From: an uncultured Gammaproteobacteria bacterium | Lineage (GTDB): Bacteria > Patescibacteriota > Microgenomatia > Levybacterales > UBA12049 | Direction: 5' to 3' | Length of the DNA: 64,000 bases | Assembly: GCA_964503265.1 (NCBI GenBank) | Contig: CAZCYO010000001.1 | Location: 226,064 to 290,063 of the forward strand | Shown here: positions 13,028-61,067 of the stretch, in pieces | How the letters are laid out: each line of letters starts with the position of its first letter | How positions within the stretch are numbered: the first letter of the stretch is position 1 | The notes under the pieces: generated by a model | Told to the model about the DNA's origin: nothing | The model's input: only the letters and a program-made list of their open reading frames with translations | Databases searched by the model: none | Program-made: the position numbers and the translations under genes

Positions 13028-13789
13028 ATGAACACATCAGTTATAATTATAACGAAAAACGAAGAAAAGAATATCGAAGAGTGTATTAAAACACTTGAAG
13101 GATACGATGAAATTATTGTGGTAGATGATAATTCATCGGATGCAACTGCAAAAATTGCTAAAAAACTTGGTGCCCAAGTATATGAGCATTCACTTGAGGG
13201 TGATTTTGCCGCCCAGCGGAATTTTGGGCTACAGAAAGCGAAAGGATCATGGATTCTTTTTATTGATGCAGACGAACGGATGAGCCCACAGCTTAATTAC
13301 GAAATTCATAGTCAGATTAATGATGCTATGAGTATTTACAGTGGGTTTTATATTCGGCGAATTGATAAAATGTGGGGAAAGACTATAACACATGGTGAAA
13401 GTAGTCAAACGAAATTTCTACGACTTGCTAAAAAGGGAAGTGGAGACTGGATAGGAATGGTGCACGAGCGATGGATGGTAAACGGAAAAGTTGGGATGCT
13501 TAAACATCCACTCATGCATTTTCCCCATCAAACGATTCGTGAATTTGTTACTGAGATTAATTATTATACTGATTTAAGAGCAGGGGAACTTAATGATAGA
13601 AAAGTAAAAGTTCGAAGACGTGATATTTTCCTTTTTCCATTAGGTAAATTTATTCAAAACTATTTTTTTCGATTAGGAATACTCGATGGGTTAATTGGAT
13701 TACTTCAAGCGATTCTCATGAGTTTTCATTCGTTTTTAGTTCGAGGTAAGCTTTGGTTGCTACAAAATAAAAACTATGAGCAGCTATAA
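13028..13789 (+). CDS. GT2 glycosyltransferase (LPS-core-type, WaaE/KdtX-like).
   Basis: SVIIITKNEEKNIEECIKTL...IIVVDDNSSD, FIDADE (DxD). Confidence 0.75.
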   Translation: MNTSVIIITKNEEKNIEECIKTLEGYDEIIVVDDNSSDATAKIAKKLGAQVYEHSLEGDFAAQRNFGLQKAKGSWILFIDADERMSPQLNYEIHSQINDAMSIYSGFYIRRIDKMWGKTITHGESSQTKFLRLAKKGSGDWIGMVHERWMVNGKVGMLKHPLMHFPHQTIREFVTEINYYTDLRAGELNDRKVKVRRRDIFLFPLGKFIQNYFFRLGILDGLIGLLQAILMSFHSFLVRGKLWLLQNKNYEQL

Positions 13790-42080: not shown

Positions 42081-43868
42081 TCAAATCATTTCAAACCATT
42101 TTTTAACTTCTTCATATTTCCATGTGTTGACGACGTCTTTTTTCTCAAGCCAGCCTCGTCGTGCGACGTCTACACCATATTCCATCATATCCATCCCATC
42201 AAGTGAATGAGAATCTGTATCGATAAAAAAGACGTTTCCTGCGCTTTTAGCCTGTCTAATGAGTTCGTCAGGGAGATCTAATCGTTGTGGTGCAGCATTT
42301 ATCTCAAGTGCTTTATGGTGTTCTGCCGTAAATGCGAAGATTTGTTGCCAATCTGCGTTGATACTTGGTCGTTCATTTATCAGTCGTGCTGTAGGATGAG
42401 CGAATATTTTAACTTTTGGATGAGTAAGCCCTTTTATGATTCTTTTCGTCATTTCTTCACTCGTCATACTGAAAGAACTATGGATGGATACGAGTATTCC
42501 GTCGAGTAATTCTAAGGCTTCATCAGGGAGAGCGAGTTTCCCATCAGGGAGAATATCTGTTTCGATCAAGGAAAATATTCGAACACTATTTGTGTTCTTA
42601 ATATGATCAATAAATTTACTCCTTTTTTCAATAATACGCACAATTTCTTCCTGTGTATGCTTAGAGAGACTTGGGTTATGTTCGGAAAAACCGAGATAAT
42701 CGTAATGTAAATCTTTGGCTCGAGTTAACATTTGCTGCATTGTATGGCTTCCCATGTCGTGACTTGGCTCAAGATCATAATTTGAATGAAGATGAAAATC
42801 TCCTTTAATGTCTTTTAATTCGAGTAAAACTGGAAGTGCGTTTTTTTGAGCAAGTTCTATCTCTCCTGTATCTTCACGAATTTCTGGAGGAATATACGTT
42901 AATCCAATTGCTTCATAAAATTCTTTTTCTGTTTCGTATTTTTGAATTGTTTCAGTATCTCCCGATGTTTTTTTAATGCCCCATTCTGAAAGGGATAGTC
43001 CTTTTGAGAGTGCATATTCTCGTAAATGTACGTTATGATTTTTGCTTCCGGTGAAATGCTGAAGGAGAGATCCGAAGCTTTCTTTGGGTTGGGTTCGTAA
43101 ATCAACCCTAAACCCGCCAGCAGTCAGAAAGTTTGCTTCATTTTTCCCTTTACCAAGTATTCGCTCAATATATGGATATGCTACAAAATGTTCAATCACA
43201 GCAGCGTCGTTTTTTGTCGTAACAGCGATATCGACGTCACCAATAGTGTCACGCTTTCTACGCAAACTTCCCAGAGGATATGCCTCCAGCACATACGGAG
43301 ATTTTTTAAGAAAAGCAATTATTTTTTCAGCTAGTTCGTTTGCAAAGGGGAGAGGCATACGAATATTTTTTATTTTTCCAAGTCGATATTCATTTATAGC
43401 TGATAAAATAAGTTCTTGAGATTTTTCGCCGAATCCTTCGAGTTTTGCGATCTCACCAGATTTTGCTAGTTTTTCTACATCGTCGATAATCTTTTTTGGA
43501 TCTTCGAGGTTAAAATGTGTAACGAGTTTAAATGCTTTTTTCGGTCCAAAGCTTGGAATTTCTAACAGCGGGAACATAGCGGCTGGAAGTTCACCAAGTA
43601 GTTTCGTAAAATGGCTGGAAGACCCTTTAGAAAATAATTCAGTCAAATGTTCTCGAATAGATGGACCGACTCCAGGAATTCCCTCAGATCTTCCTTCTAA
43701 GAATAAACTTTCAATAGGGGTAGTCATTGATTCGATGGCTTCAGAAGCTTTGTTATACGCCATGATTTGAAAACGGAACTTACCTTCGTCTTTAATAGCG
43801 TAGGAGACTGCGACGTGGTGGAGGAGTGTGGCGACTTCTTTATTCGTCATTACTGACCAGTTTAGCAT
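42081..43868 (-). CDS. polX: DNA polymerase X family protein (HhH plus Pol-beta nucleotidyltransferase plus PHP domain).
   Basis: HhH motifs, GSLRRKRDTIGDVDI nucleotidyltransferase motif, C-terminal PHP histidine cluster (HLHSNYD...HTARL). Likely start MTNKEV. Confidence 0.8.
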   Translation of the reverse strand: MLNWSVMTNKEVATLLHHVAVSYAIKDEGKFRFQIMAYNKASEAIESMTTPIESLFLEGRSEGIPGVGPSIREHLTELFSKGSSSHFTKLLGELPAAMFPLLEIPSFGPKKAFKLVTHFNLEDPKKIIDDVEKLAKSGEIAKLEGFGEKSQELILSAINEYRLGKIKNIRMPLPFANELAEKIIAFLKKSPYVLEAYPLGSLRRKRDTIGDVDIAVTTKNDAAVIEHFVAYPYIERILGKGKNEANFLTAGGFRVDLRTQPKESFGSLLQHFTGSKNHNVHLREYALSKGLSLSEWGIKKTSGDTETIQKYETEKEFYEAIGLTYIPPEIREDTGEIELAQKNALPVLLELKDIKGDFHLHSNYDLEPSHDMGSHTMQQMLTRAKDLHYDYLGFSEHNPSLSKHTQEEIVRIIEKRSKFIDHIKNTNSVRIFSLIETDILPDGKLALPDEALELLDGILVSIHSSFSMTSEEMTKRIIKGLTHPKVKIFAHPTARLINERPSINADWQQIFAFTAEHHKALEINAAPQRLDLPDELIRQAKSAGNVFFIDTDSHSLDGMDMMEYGVDVARRGWLEKKDVVNTWKYEEVKKWFEMI

Positions 43869-43955: not shown

Positions 43956-44032
43956 GGGGTGGTAGCTCAGTTGGTTAGAGCGCTTCCCTGTCACGGAAGA
44001 GGTCGCGGGTTCGAGTCCCGTTCATCCCGCCA
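43956..44032 (+). tRNA. tRNA-Asp (anticodon GTC), CCA encoded.
   Basis: GGGGTGGTAGCTCAGTTGGTTAGAGC...CCTGTCACGG...GGTTCGAGTCCCG...CCA. Cloverleaf folds with the anticodon loop CTGTCAC. Confidence 0.85.
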
Positions 44033-44120: not shown

Positions 44121-45056
44121 ATGGCAAATAAACGAACAGAAAAATCAGTAACCCCAAAGTCTTCAGCATCTCGTGCTAAAGAAACGATGAAAAAAACTCC
44201 AACTGAAAATTCAGTAAAGAGATCGTTTGACTATTTCCGAATTAGTGAATCATATACGAGTCTTATACTAGGAGTAGTCGTAGTAGTTATTACATCTATT
44301 CTTCTCATCGCATTTTTACGAAATCGTACGAATATGAATACTCCACAACCAACAAAAGATATTTCAACAGCGATGAAGATTGGTCCGACTATTTCTCCAA
44401 CTGATGCGCCAATCGATATCGTATCAAAAGCAATTTCTCAACCAATCACTCCAACTGTTACTCAAGGAGCAACGCCTACTCCTATAATTACTGTGACAAA
44501 TACACCAGTGCCGACAATGAAGCCAACCGCTATTCCAACAGTCAAACCAACGAGTATCCCAACTGAGATAGCTAAAAAAGTCACACCGATAGTTACTAAA
44601 AGTCCAGAGGTAAAGCCGACTGTTGTTGCAACTATAAAATCTGGACAGACTGTTAAAGCGACGACATATACGACTAAAGCCGGAGATGATCTGTGGGCGA
44701 TCGCTGAGAAGTATTATAATAGTGGGTACAACTGGACTGATATCGCTAAAGCAAATAATATTACTGACGGGAATGTTATTTACTCAGGAATGAAATTAGT
44801 AATTCCTAGTGTTGAGAAAAAAATTGCGACTGTAACCGTTACGCCGACACCTACGAACGCACCAACTGCTATGGCTAATTTAGGCAAACCATCACAAAAT
44901 CATGCAAAAACATATACTATTAATCCAGGTGATGATCTTTGGGATGTGGCAGTTGCGGTTTATAATGATGGATATCGATGGCCAGAAATCGCTAAAGCAA
45001 ATAATTTGACAGATCCAAATGTCATTCACTCAGGTAATGTACTTAAAATTCCGTAA
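44121..45056 (+). CDS. Membrane-anchored protein with two LysM peptidoglycan-binding domains and a Pro/Thr-rich linker.
   Basis: Two copies of GDDLW...IA...YNSGYNWTDIAKANN...G..L.IP. N-terminal TM helix. Confidence 0.8.
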   Translation: MANKRTEKSVTPKSSASRAKETMKKTPTENSVKRSFDYFRISESYTSLILGVVVVVITSILLIAFLRNRTNMNTPQPTKDISTAMKIGPTISPTDAPIDIVSKAISQPITPTVTQGATPTPIITVTNTPVPTMKPTAIPTVKPTSIPTEIAKKVTPIVTKSPEVKPTVVATIKSGQTVKATTYTTKAGDDLWAIAEKYYNSGYNWTDIAKANNITDGNVIYSGMKLVIPSVEKKIATVTVTPTPTNAPTAMANLGKPSQNHAKTYTINPGDDLWDVAVAVYNDGYRWPEIAKANNLTDPNVIHSGNVLKIP

Positions 45057-50415: not shown

Positions 50416-52413
50416 TTATTTATTCTCTAGCTCCTTAATCTTATCCCTTATTTGTAATGCACTTTCGAAATCTAAATGCTCTGCGGCTAATTTCATTTCT
50501 TTTCGCAATCGACTAATAACATCTTTTCGCTCATCTGGAAGAAGTACCTCTTTTGTTCCGAGTTCTACCATAAAATCGATTGATCGCTGTTCACCTTTTT
50601 GTTCTTTTTCCTCGACGAGCCGTGCACGAATCGATTTTTCAATTCCAACCGGGGTAATGCCATGTTTCTTATTGTAGGCTGTCTGAACTTCTCGTCGGCG
50701 TTCGACTTCATCTATCGCGTATTTCATCGAGTCAGTGATTCGGTCTGCATACATGATGACCTGTGAGTCGACGTGCCTGGCTGCGCGTCCCATGGTTTGG
50801 ATAAGAGACGTACGAGAACGTAAAAATCCTTCTTTATCTGCATCGAGAATCACGACGAGGGATACTTCTGGAAGATCGAGTCCTTCACGAAGAAGATTGA
50901 TTCCGACTAATACATCATAATCACCCACGCGAAGCTTATCGAGGACATCTTGGCGTTCAAGTGTAATAATATCTGAGTGAAGATATGCGACTTTTACTTT
51001 TTTATCGTCGAGATAGCTGGTCAGTTCTTCAGCCATACGCTTGGTGAGAGTTGTAACGAGTACACGTTCTTTTTTAACTACTCGTTTTTCAATTTCGAGC
51101 AAGAGATCTGGAATTTGTCCTGCTGATGGTTTGATCGTAATGACTGGATCGACGAGTCCTGTTGGACGGATAAGCTGTTCGGCGACATTTTCTGGACCAC
51201 TCAGGGACACTTCAAATTCATTTGGGGTTGCTGATACGAATACTTTGCGGTTTACCTTTCTCATAAATTCATCAAAGCGAAGTGGGCGATTATCTAGTGC
51301 TGAGGGAAGTCTGAATCCATAATCGATGAGTGTCCGTTTTCGAGCTTGGTCTCCGTTATACATTCCTCTGATTTGAGGAAGTGTTATATGAGATTCGTCG
51401 ATGATAAGTAGCCAATCATTTTTTGCAGCTGCTTTAAAGTATTCAAGAAGTGTATATGGTGGATCGCCAGGCTTACGGTCTTCGAAGTAAAATGAATAAT
51501 TTTCAATTCCGTTTACATATCCAACTTCTTGCATCATTTCAAGGTCAAATTGTGTTCGTTGGGCAAGGCGCTGAGCTTCAAGAAGTTTGTTCTCGCTTCG
51601 AAGCTCTGCCACACGTTTGTCGAGATCAGCTTTAATTCGAGCGAACGCATCATTACGTGTCGAGGGGTCTGTCATGTAATGTTTCGCTGGGTAAATCACA
51701 GTTTTCGGAAGAGCTTTCGTGATTTCACCAGATACAGGATTAAATTCAGACATTTTGGTAATAAATCCTTCATTTGTTTCAATACGGATCCCTATATCCA
51801 TGTAGGCTGGGAAGAGGTCAATAACGCCTCCACGAATGCGAAATGATCCTCGTTTAAATTCATAGTCATTTCGTAGATACTGAAGATCAGTGAGGCGAAC
51901 GAGGATATCTCGCATCTCGACTTTAAGCCCTTCCATCAGTTCGAGGACGAACTTTCCATATTCAAGAGGTGAACCTAAGTTATAAATACATGACACTGAT
52001 GCGACGACGATAGCGTCTTTACGTGTTAAGAGGTTAGTAGTGGCCGAGAGACGAAGTTTGTCTATCTCATCGTTAATTTCAGCTTCTTTCTCTATATATG
52101 TATCGGTAGTAGGCATGTATGCTTCTGGCTGATAGTAATCATAGTAAGAAACGAAGTAAGAGACAGCATTTTCAGGGAAGAAATCTCTGAACTCCTGGTA
52201 GAGTTGCCCTGCAAGTGTTTTATTATGCGAGATGATAAGAGTAGGTTTTTGAATTTGCTGGATGACATTTGCCATGGTAAACGTTTTACCACTTCCTGTA
52301 ACACCGAGAAGCACTTGGTTTTGTTCATCTTTTTTAAGTCCTGAGACGAGTTTCGCAATAGCATCAGGCTGATCACCCATAGGTTTGAAATCTGATTTAA
52401 GTTTAAAATCCAT
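50416..52413 (-). CDS. uvrB: Excinuclease ABC subunit B.
   Basis: LLGVTGSGKTFT Walker A, helicase motifs, C-terminal UVR domain. 665 aa. Confidence 0.95.
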   Translation of the reverse strand: MDFKLKSDFKPMGDQPDAIAKLVSGLKKDEQNQVLLGVTGSGKTFTMANVIQQIQKPTLIISHNKTLAGQLYQEFRDFFPENAVSYFVSYYDYYQPEAYMPTTDTYIEKEAEINDEIDKLRLSATTNLLTRKDAIVVASVSCIYNLGSPLEYGKFVLELMEGLKVEMRDILVRLTDLQYLRNDYEFKRGSFRIRGGVIDLFPAYMDIGIRIETNEGFITKMSEFNPVSGEITKALPKTVIYPAKHYMTDPSTRNDAFARIKADLDKRVAELRSENKLLEAQRLAQRTQFDLEMMQEVGYVNGIENYSFYFEDRKPGDPPYTLLEYFKAAAKNDWLLIIDESHITLPQIRGMYNGDQARKRTLIDYGFRLPSALDNRPLRFDEFMRKVNRKVFVSATPNEFEVSLSGPENVAEQLIRPTGLVDPVITIKPSAGQIPDLLLEIEKRVVKKERVLVTTLTKRMAEELTSYLDDKKVKVAYLHSDIITLERQDVLDKLRVGDYDVLVGINLLREGLDLPEVSLVVILDADKEGFLRSRTSLIQTMGRAARHVDSQVIMYADRITDSMKYAIDEVERRREVQTAYNKKHGITPVGIEKSIRARLVEEKEQKGEQRSIDFMVELGTKEVLLPDERKDVISRLRKEMKLAAEHLDFESALQIRDKIKELENK

Positions 52414-52493
52414 GCACCTATTCTATCACATGAGAGAGAAGAGTGCTTAAGTCCTATAAAAATATTGATATGCTTTGTCTATGTTTGTCCGAT

Positions 52494-52526
52494 TGTCTAA
52501 ATTATACGAAATTCGTATAATTTTCA
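52494..52526 (+). promoter_or_regulatory. lexA promoter (TTGTCT-17-TATAAT) overlapped by a perfect 9-1-9 palindrome TTATACGAA-a-TTCGTATAA (candidate SOS/LexA box).
   Basis: Palindrome at 52502..52520 spans the spacer and -10 hexamer. It lies between the divergent uvrB and lexA genes. Confidence 0.55.
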
Positions 52527-52563
52527 TATCATTAGTTTATTTTTATAACTGCTGATAATCATT

Positions 52564-53193
52564 ATGCCAGGCGTATTATATAAAAAAGAACGAGAACTCC
52601 TAGAATTTCTCGCACAATTCCAAAAACAGTATGGGTACTCACCAACTCTCGTCGAAATGGCGAAAGGAACAGGACATAAGAGTGTCTCAACGATCCACAC
52701 GATTATCCGAAATTTAGTTGAAAAAGGATATATCCAGAAAGTAGATGGAAACGCACGTGTACTTCGCATCATCGAAGATAACATTTCACCTAATATGTAT
52801 AAAGTCTCGCCATCTATCGAACTTCCTCTTATGGGTTTTATCGCAGCAGGCAAGCCACTTGAACCACACACAGATCCAAATGCGACATTCCCAGTTTCAG
52901 CGAGTCTGATCTCAGGTGGAAAAACAGCATATGTGCTTCAGGTAAAGGGAACATCGATGATAGATGATGGTATTATGGATGGTGATTATGTCGTAATCGA
53001 AAAAGTATCAGAAGCACGTAATGGTGAGATCGTGGTCGCACTCGTTGATGATAACCTCGCGACATTAAAACGATTTTATATGGAAGATGGAAGAGTAGTA
53101 CTTAAGCCAGCTAATGCAACCATGGAACCGATCTATCCTAAAAGCATCCGCATCCAAGGAAGAGCAGTCTCTCTCGTTCGTAAATTCCTCTAA
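52564..53193 (+). CDS. lexA: LexA repressor (S24 peptidase).
   Basis: N-terminal wHTH. C-terminal S24 domain GTSMIDDGIMDGDYVV with the Ser...Lys catalytic pair in context. Confidence 0.9.
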   Translation: MPGVLYKKERELLEFLAQFQKQYGYSPTLVEMAKGTGHKSVSTIHTIIRNLVEKGYIQKVDGNARVLRIIEDNISPNMYKVSPSIELPLMGFIAAGKPLEPHTDPNATFPVSASLISGGKTAYVLQVKGTSMIDDGIMDGDYVVIEKVSEARNGEIVVALVDDNLATLKRFYMEDGRVVLKPANATMEPIYPKSIRIQGRAVSLVRKFL

Positions 53194-53459: not shown

Positions 53460-53762
53460 ATGGAAAACATGTTCGGAGGAAAAGTTGTCTATCGACCGGA
53501 GTTCATGCCCGAAGATGGGAAGTACATGCTGATCCTCTTTACGGTAGAAGAAATCAATGTGCCTGCTCATGGTGAAACTGCCGAAAAGCAGTTGGTCGTA
53601 CCTACTCATCAGATTGAAGCCTATGTCGATCTCGAGAGCATTTCTCAACGTGTCGAAGGTCTGATGAAACGTGAGCCAGGTCGAACTGACTTCATTATCC
53701 TGCATGCCGACCAGCTCCAGGTCGTGACGAATTATACCCTCACGGGCTGTAGTAGGACATAA
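53460..53762 (+). CDS. Hypothetical small protein (GC-rich islet 3, ORF 1).
   Basis: GGAG 7 nt upstream of ATG. 100 aa. GC-rich codons. Confidence 0.45.
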   Translation: MENMFGGKVVYRPEFMPEDGKYMLILFTVEEINVPAHGETAEKQLVVPTHQIEAYVDLESISQRVEGLMKREPGRTDFIILHADQLQVVTNYTLTGCSRT

Positions 53763-53818
53763 TCACTGCATACAGTCAATTCTTGCACCATATAGGTGCT
53801 GAACTTAGGGGGGTCTCT

Positions 53819-54037
53819 ATGGACGAGAAGGATGTCCTGCGGATCAAGAATCGGCACTCTCGGCAGTTGAGGCAGAGGCCGAAAGTTAACGGTGTTGGCA
53901 CGTGTGTGATTAACGGAGTGCACTGTGTGCACGTCTGGCTGACAAGTGAAGCTGAACCGTCTGACAACCTGCCGGCGACCCTTGAGGGTGTTCCGGTGGT
54001 CTACGAAGTTCTCGGCGAGATCATTCCTCGGAACTAG
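53819..54037 (+). CDS. Hypothetical small protein (GC-rich islet 3, ORF 2).
   Basis: AGGGGGG upstream of ATG. 72 aa. GC-rich codons. Confidence 0.45.
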   Translation: MDEKDVLRIKNRHSRQLRQRPKVNGVGTCVINGVHCVHVWLTSEAEPSDNLPATLEGVPVVYEVLGEIIPRN

Positions 54038-60943: not shown

Positions 60944-61009
60944 TACATCTATTATGTATTAAATGGATAGGATGTATCAAGAGTATTTTAGGGGTTTTTA
61001 AGAATGGTT

Positions 61010-61036
61010 GTACCGGGGATTTGAGATCCCCGGTAC
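61010..61036. terminator. Perfect 11-bp GC-rich hairpin (GTACCGGGGAT-ttgag-ATCCCCGGTAC) between the islet 4 operon end and the ppsA start.
   Basis: Read directly from the sequence. No clear U-tract on either side. Confidence 0.35.
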
Positions 61037-61067
61037 ATCTGATTGCACTGAAATGGCGAGAGTGAGA

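Follow-up and report, generated by a model that had tools for sequence, protein, structure and literature searches.

Within the window, by which we mean the whole 64-kb stretch of DNA analysed here, lexA (52564..53193, plus strand) encodes a protein of 209 aa whose domains are a winged HTH and an S24 peptidase (Pfam PF01726 and PF00717). Its divergent neighbour uvrB, recognised by its UvrB domains (Pfam), occupies 50416..52413 on the minus strand. A promoter scan placed the lexA -35 hexamer TTGTCT at 52493..52498 and the -10 hexamer TATAAT at 52516..52521, both on the plus strand. With its 17-bp spacer this promoter (52493-52521) agrees with the consensus at 10 of 12 positions, and lexA transcription would be predicted to start near 52528. 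The scan thus recovered the well-formed promoter that a preliminary description had placed around a palindrome overlapping the lexA -10; the start coordinate given there, 52494, was off by one, because TTGTCT lies at 52493-52498.

By direct reading of the window, the region around the palindrome is ...cgaTTGTCTaaatTATACGAaatTCGTATAATtttc... and contains a 12-1-12 inverted repeat, AAATTATACGAA-a-TTCGTATAATTT, at 52499..52523 (no strand assigned), the proposed LexA operator. It fills the spacer and the -10 hexamer, from about -29 to -5 of the lexA promoter. Its two arms (52499-52510 and 52512-52523) have 12 nt apiece, are complementary at every position and flank a single central base, the a at 52511. 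The 9-1-9 repeat reported previously at 52502..52520 is exactly as claimed, the perfect complementarity being even longer. The left half-site TTATACGAA (52502..52510, minus strand) is TTCGTATAA in reverse complement and belongs to the promoter spacer, outside both -35 and -10, and the right half-site TTCGTATAA (52512..52520, plus strand) overlaps the -10 hexamer. The start codons of lexA and uvrB are 41-44 bp and 86-89 bp away, respectively (about 40 and 90 bp in the earlier description).

The 13-mer core of the palindrome has a single exact copy in the 64 kb. In 200 first-order Markov simulations, perfect palindromes with arms of at least 12 and a spacer of at most 5 were expected 0.025 times per window (5 of the 200 simulations gave one or more); two were observed, the lexA one and a GC-rich one at 61009. 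The latter, a perfect 12-5-12 palindrome (TGTACCGGGGAT-ttgag-ATCCCCGGTACA, 61009-61037) between a pgi-like gene and the gene of a PEP-utilising enzyme, is unrelated to the lexA palindrome and equally improbable by chance; possible roles are those of a terminator or of an operator for a metabolic regulator. An Rfam search of the window returned three tRNAs and no other family.

Downstream of lexA, the stretch 53463-54037, before an rsmI-like methylase gene, contains a pair of small ORFs of about 99 and 84 aa without Pfam matches. They gave no tblastn match in 80 related loci, 70 of which carry a methylase homologue downstream of lexA, and the pair looks like a lineage-specific insertion.

Conservation of the half-site in related lexA promoters

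We compared the region with 80 species-level loci from GTDB genomes, whose LexA proteins are 58-80% identical to that of the window. The closest LexA homologues carry the names Candidatus Levybacteria or Patescibacteria. Many Levybacteria-type lexA-uvrB MAG records (L002-L012 and others) are titled 'uncultured Gammaproteobacteria bacterium', and a few Berkelbacteria, Saccharimonadales, Lysobacterales or Limnocylindrales; such titles of Levybacteria-type records are probably the result of mislabelling or mis-binning.

The layout of the lexA promoter is kept in the relatives as TTGACA, 17-18 bp and TATAWW. The -35 hexamer is TTGACA in 46 of 65, the spacer measures 17-18 nt in 63 of 65, and the -10 reads TATAAA, TATATT or TATAAT. 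In 18 of 65 lexA genes no more than 6-13 nt separate this -10 from the ATG. The lexA -10 of the relatives is overlapped by an 8-bp element, TTCGTATA. Its core TCGTATA is exact in 64 of the 80 lexA upstream regions, whereas the rest of these loci has 0.067 occurrences per kb, counted on both strands. The lineage-specific LexA box that had been proposed is hence present upstream of lexA in related genomes, and phylogenetic footprinting over 80 Levybacteria species and 23 metagenome contigs picked out an element under selection and specific to lexA promoters, as would be expected of an autoregulatory LexA operator. The conserved unit is TTCGTATA (TATACGAA on the opposite strand) instead of the half-site TACGAA named at first. 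Conservation of the right half-site is partly due to the -10 hexamer that it overlaps; the TTCG 5' to the -10 is nearly invariant as well, at about 2 bits per position, though it is no sigma-70 element.

In the clade of the window, the element has a second, inverted copy, giving TATACGA-N3-5-TCGTATA, and the window palindrome itself is made up of two inverted, not direct, TTCGTATA half-sites. The left TATACGA is the exact reverse complement of TCGTATA and was found in 24 of the 80 species, with 7/7 positions in 17 and 6/7 in 7. The spacing between the inverted half-sites is N4 in 20 species, N3 in two and N5 in two. Across 21 inverted-class lexA promoters the left half-site reaches about 2 bits per position at TA.ACGAA, which equals the right half, though it is no promoter element. 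Versions of the left element with 5/7 positions, such as TACTCGA, occur in nine further species. In the nearest relatives, with LexA 92-95% identical, ACGAAATTCGTATAATTTTC is invariant and the downstream leader has diverged. These relatives read TACACGA and lack perfect symmetry, so that the perfect symmetry of the window is strain-specific.

The last point, together with the inclusion of the -10 hexamer in the right arm and a single-stranded DNA fold of -7.8 kcal/mol (z = -3.9) for the palindrome region, would be in keeping with DNA that no protein binds, either mere promoter sequence (-10 plus spacer) or a fortuitously symmetric hairpin or cruciform. Such an account seems most improbable to us. 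TTCG and the entire left half-site reach nearly 2 bits per position without being sigma-70 elements, and the spacing varies from N3 to N5 while the half-site sequences persist, which fits protein recognition and not a hairpin. Moreover, the other promoters in the window lack TCGTATA. We also rejected TCGTATA as a general promoter sequence: the two strands of the window have only 9 copies, and the others are intragenic with one exception.

uvrB and the search for further targets

The palindrome was initially described as shared with the divergent uvrB, which would make it a bidirectional SOS operator from which LexA also represses uvrB. uvrB is a classic SOS gene in other phyla. Its divergent synteny with lexA holds in 75 of the 80 loci, each from a different species, and where the intergenic region is shortest (77-94 bp) only about 50-75 bp separate the operator from the uvrB ATG. 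Against this, uvrB has a promoter of its own, of leaderless type: an extended -10, TGATAGAAT (52420..52428, minus strand), ends 6 nt before its ATG. The same TGnTAnAAT element ends 6-10 nt before the ATG in 74 of 76 loci, which implies a leaderless uvrB mRNA. In the window the palindrome is centred about 97 bp upstream of the start of uvrB, outside the uvrB core promoter, and across loci the distance between operator and uvrB ranges from below 100 bp to more than 1.5 kb. Where a gene has come between uvrB and lexA (20 loci), uvrB retains its promoter, and no box was found at uvrB in 19 of them; the exception, L061, carries something repeat-like at a distance of about 100 bp upstream. With an own promoter and no box on separation, the shared operator is unsupported, and we regard repression of uvrB from this site as unlikely. 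Judged from these alignments, the operator probably serves lexA only, with uvrB a syntenic neighbour carrying a leaderless-type promoter. The genes inserted in the 20 loci form a mixed set, encoding HD-domain proteins, riboflavin synthase and membrane proteins, and gave no hint of a conserved SOS partner.

Similarly, the search for further sites in the window gave no second target. With up to 2 mismatches, the 13-mer core has 4 matches against 3.6 expected, and pairs of half-sites, whether direct, inverted or everted, yielded no credible candidate across the window. The only near match of the core, at 13298, was discarded as a second site, being inside a glycosyltransferase gene, and so was a match at 44253 inside a LysM gene; a 414-bp periodicity of TATACGA near the latter was put down to coincidence. 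Window genes were annotated by Pfam, and dnaE was recognised by a signature peptide. No site was found in the window at the glycosyltransferase, ATP synthase, GatAB, MurT/GatD, PolX, CTP synthase and glycolytic genes, at dnaE or in uvrB's own promoter. The family-X DNA polymerase gene polX (42081-43868, minus strand) has its own extended -10, TGCTAAACT, near the ATG, and tRNA-Asp (43956-44032) lies just upstream; a lone TTCGTAT, without a partner half-site, is found about 55 bp upstream of polX.

In 660 kb of related loci, only weak matches with 2 mismatches were present. Of recA, uvrA, ruvB, recN and dinB, sought by signature peptides in the sequence covered by the regulon search, a single uvrA (L067) turned up, and no recA. 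We then scanned metagenomes, for perfect matches to the 24-nt pattern AWWTATACGANNNNTCGTATAWWT only, and obtained at least 80 loci. Among the matches listed, at least 22 are directly upstream of a Levybacteria-type lexA, and one more (L250) is apparently the same lexA promoter, cut off at the contig end. Every match of the Levybacteria lineage among those listed is a lexA promoter, with no second regulon member. The other 57 of the matches listed belong to unrelated organisms (GC 0.23-0.64), where the sequence lies beside TetR, XRE, PadR and assorted genes. In unrelated organisms with GC 0.36-0.57 (L204, L241, L246/L259 and L254), TATACGA-N4-TCGTATA is immediately upstream of TetR-, XRE- or PadR-type genes. 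Versions that are palindromic throughout, for example TATACGAATATTCGTATA and TATACGAACGTTCGTATA, recur in several of the unrelated contigs. In viral contigs, matches to the 14-base pattern appeared to be chance ones among the matches listed.

Since the same 14-base palindrome occurs beside TetR, XRE and PadR genes elsewhere, its sequence alone cannot identify the binding protein. A different dimeric regulator, for instance of TetR or XRE type and encoded elsewhere, could therefore be imagined to control lexA from the palindrome: the identical TATACGA-N4-TCGTATA stands beside such genes in unrelated contigs, and the window, the related loci and the metagenome matches listed yielded no second LexA-type target. 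We hold this to be very unlikely. Among the Levybacteria matches listed the element is found only at lexA, and lexA itself is the sole regulator gene that consistently adjoins it. In addition, the half-site is constant where the LexA recognition helix is constant and changed in a clade with the LexA substitution K39N (see below), and autoregulation of LexA is near-universal (PMC8565304).

A candidate LexA operator and its architectures

Taken with the position of the element, shared over the core promoter by 63 of 65 relatives, the comparisons above make it quite likely, on sequence grounds, that the palindrome serves lexA as its autoregulatory operator in a genome of Candidatus Levybacteria (Patescibacteria). 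A LexA dimer would place one winged-HTH domain on each of the inverted TTCGTATA half-sites, whose centres are 9-10 bp, about one helical turn, apart. Since its site extends over both spacer and -10 hexamer (about -29 to -5), LexA, once bound, would keep RNA polymerase off the lexA promoter. Upon DNA damage, RecA would stimulate self-cleavage at Ala95-Gly96 through the Ser131/Lys169 dyad, LexA would be released and lexA transcribed again. In this organism LexA as the binder, repression upon binding and RecA as the trigger of cleavage are all presumed.

The protein has the features that such a scheme would call upon. The cleavage site A95-G96 (AAG) and the catalytic S131 and K169 are invariant in 27 homologues and align residue by residue with A84-G85, S119 and K156 of E. 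coli, which makes RecA-stimulated self-cleavage plausible for this LexA. The region of the winged HTH and its recognition helix is nearly constant across clades, which fits a constant half-site. In one clade (L060, L064, L066 and L068), TCGTGTA replaces TCGTATA, in both repeats in L064, and LexA carries K39N (and H38R); in a comparison of residues 36-39, K39N adjoins the recognition helix. This may represent covariation of protein and DNA within that single clade.

The E. coli lexA gene is autoregulated through SOS boxes, CTGT-N8-ACAG, in its own promoter, and the mechanism proposed for Levybacteria is that of E. coli lexA: LexA with winged-HTH and S24 domains, an operator over the lexA core promoter and the Ala-Gly, Ser and Lys residues of self-cleavage are all kept. 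The site itself is different, consisting in the window of TTCGTATA half-sites in an AT-rich dyad of 19-25 bp with a single-base centre, and no CTGT...ACAG was present in window positions 52480-52560. Beyond lexA, no regulon emerged from the window, the related loci and the metagenome matches listed, in sequence with a single uvrA and no recA.

The Cheo box of Gram-positive bacteria, CGAAC-N4-GTTCG, is palindromic; Firmicutes and Actinobacteria have it in their lexA and recA promoters (PMC7739468). The window site resembles it in being a palindrome with CGAA...TTCG. However, CGAA and TTCG are 6 bp apart in the Cheo box and 1-3 bp apart here (1 bp in the window), the outer conserved bases here are TATA, and direct reading gave no GAAC-N4-GTTC at the window site. 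Neither consensus matches, as the preliminary description had held in setting the site apart from the E. coli and Gram-positive boxes. A further likeness is to the GTTC-N7-GTTC motif of Alphaproteobacteria and Acidobacteria: basal and several other Levybacteria have GTTCtac-ttttt-TTTCGTATA, in which the units repeat directly every 11 bp. The window site, unlike GTTC-N7-GTTC, is inverted, and the GTTC/TTTC likeness is superficial.

LexA motifs are known to differ between phyla, direct repeats included (PMC8565304). The study of Patescibacteria by Sanchez-Osuna, Barbe & Erill (2017, Environ Microbiol 19:3465) is cited there among the sources for 17 distinct LexA-binding motifs, and the same laboratory cites it among direct-repeat LexA cases (PMC7739468). 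As far as these citations tell, a lineage-specific LexA motif of Patescibacteria is thus already published. Its listing as a direct repeat agrees with the direct TTC(G)-N7/8-TTCG of many Levybacteria lexA promoters; the likeness, within the same superphylum, is drawn through the later citations. Since lineage-specific autoregulation of LexA is well established and the Patescibacteria motif published, the broader value of the present site is modest. The element is of an ordinary kind, and its sequence is lineage-specific. For the SOS repressor of an uncultured lineage with reduced genomes it provides a definite candidate operator that can be tested, and its analysis corrects two assumptions that readily suggest themselves, namely an operator shared with uvrB and a TACGAA half-site.

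What may be new is only the orientation of the left half-site, which forms a direct, hybrid and inverted series within one lineage. In basal and several other clades, a direct copy 11 bp upstream replaces the inverted left element. The clearest direct repeats are those of L072/L073 (TTCGTATATTTTTCGTATA) and L064 (TTCGTGTAATTTTCGTGTA), the direct form is also found in L022, L069, L078, L060 and L068, and TTC(G) stands at -11 in 23 loci in all. Two loci can be read in both orientations, L002 with TTCGCGAA, itself a palindrome, and L052 with TTCTCGA, and are apparent intermediates between the two arrangements. In a neighbour-joining tree of LexA, built on about 200 residues and not robust, the deep clade has mostly the direct form and the window's clade mostly the inverted form.

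The 11-bp direct repeat implies that two DNA-binding domains can sit head-to-tail, and the tolerance of N3-N5 spacing together with direct and inverted partners argues for DNA-binding domains that would be loosely tethered in LexA. It is conceivable, as a tentative reading, that one half-site, TTCGTATA, and an almost unchanged recognition helix serve two architectures, direct with an 11-bp period in basal clades and inverted with N3-N5 in the clade of the window. If LexA binds all these forms, Levybacteria would preserve a stepwise natural series in which one operator half-site flips while the protein remains unchanged, direct evidence that flexible tethering of the DNA-binding domains permits a switch between palindrome and direct-repeat motifs. 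LexA proteins that are close relatives of one another appear to meet a single half-site in direct, hybrid and inverted arrangement, which would render the evolution of LexA motifs testable.

Two other repeated elements were seen in these promoters. A second conserved palindrome, TTTGTC-N5-GACAAA, overlaps the lexA -35 in ten loci (L001, L002, L016, L018-L020, L023, L037, L043 and L063), about 20-40 bp upstream of the operator, and is degenerate in the window (52484-52501). Some further factor could bind there, or the palindrome could merely result from tandem -35-like elements. In L020, L028, L039, L072-L079 and other loci of the direct-repeat class, TCGTATA is followed 11-13 bp downstream, near the predicted lexA start, by a third repeat-like element, (T)AGTATA; with it, up to three tandem units follow one another with a period of about 11 bp.
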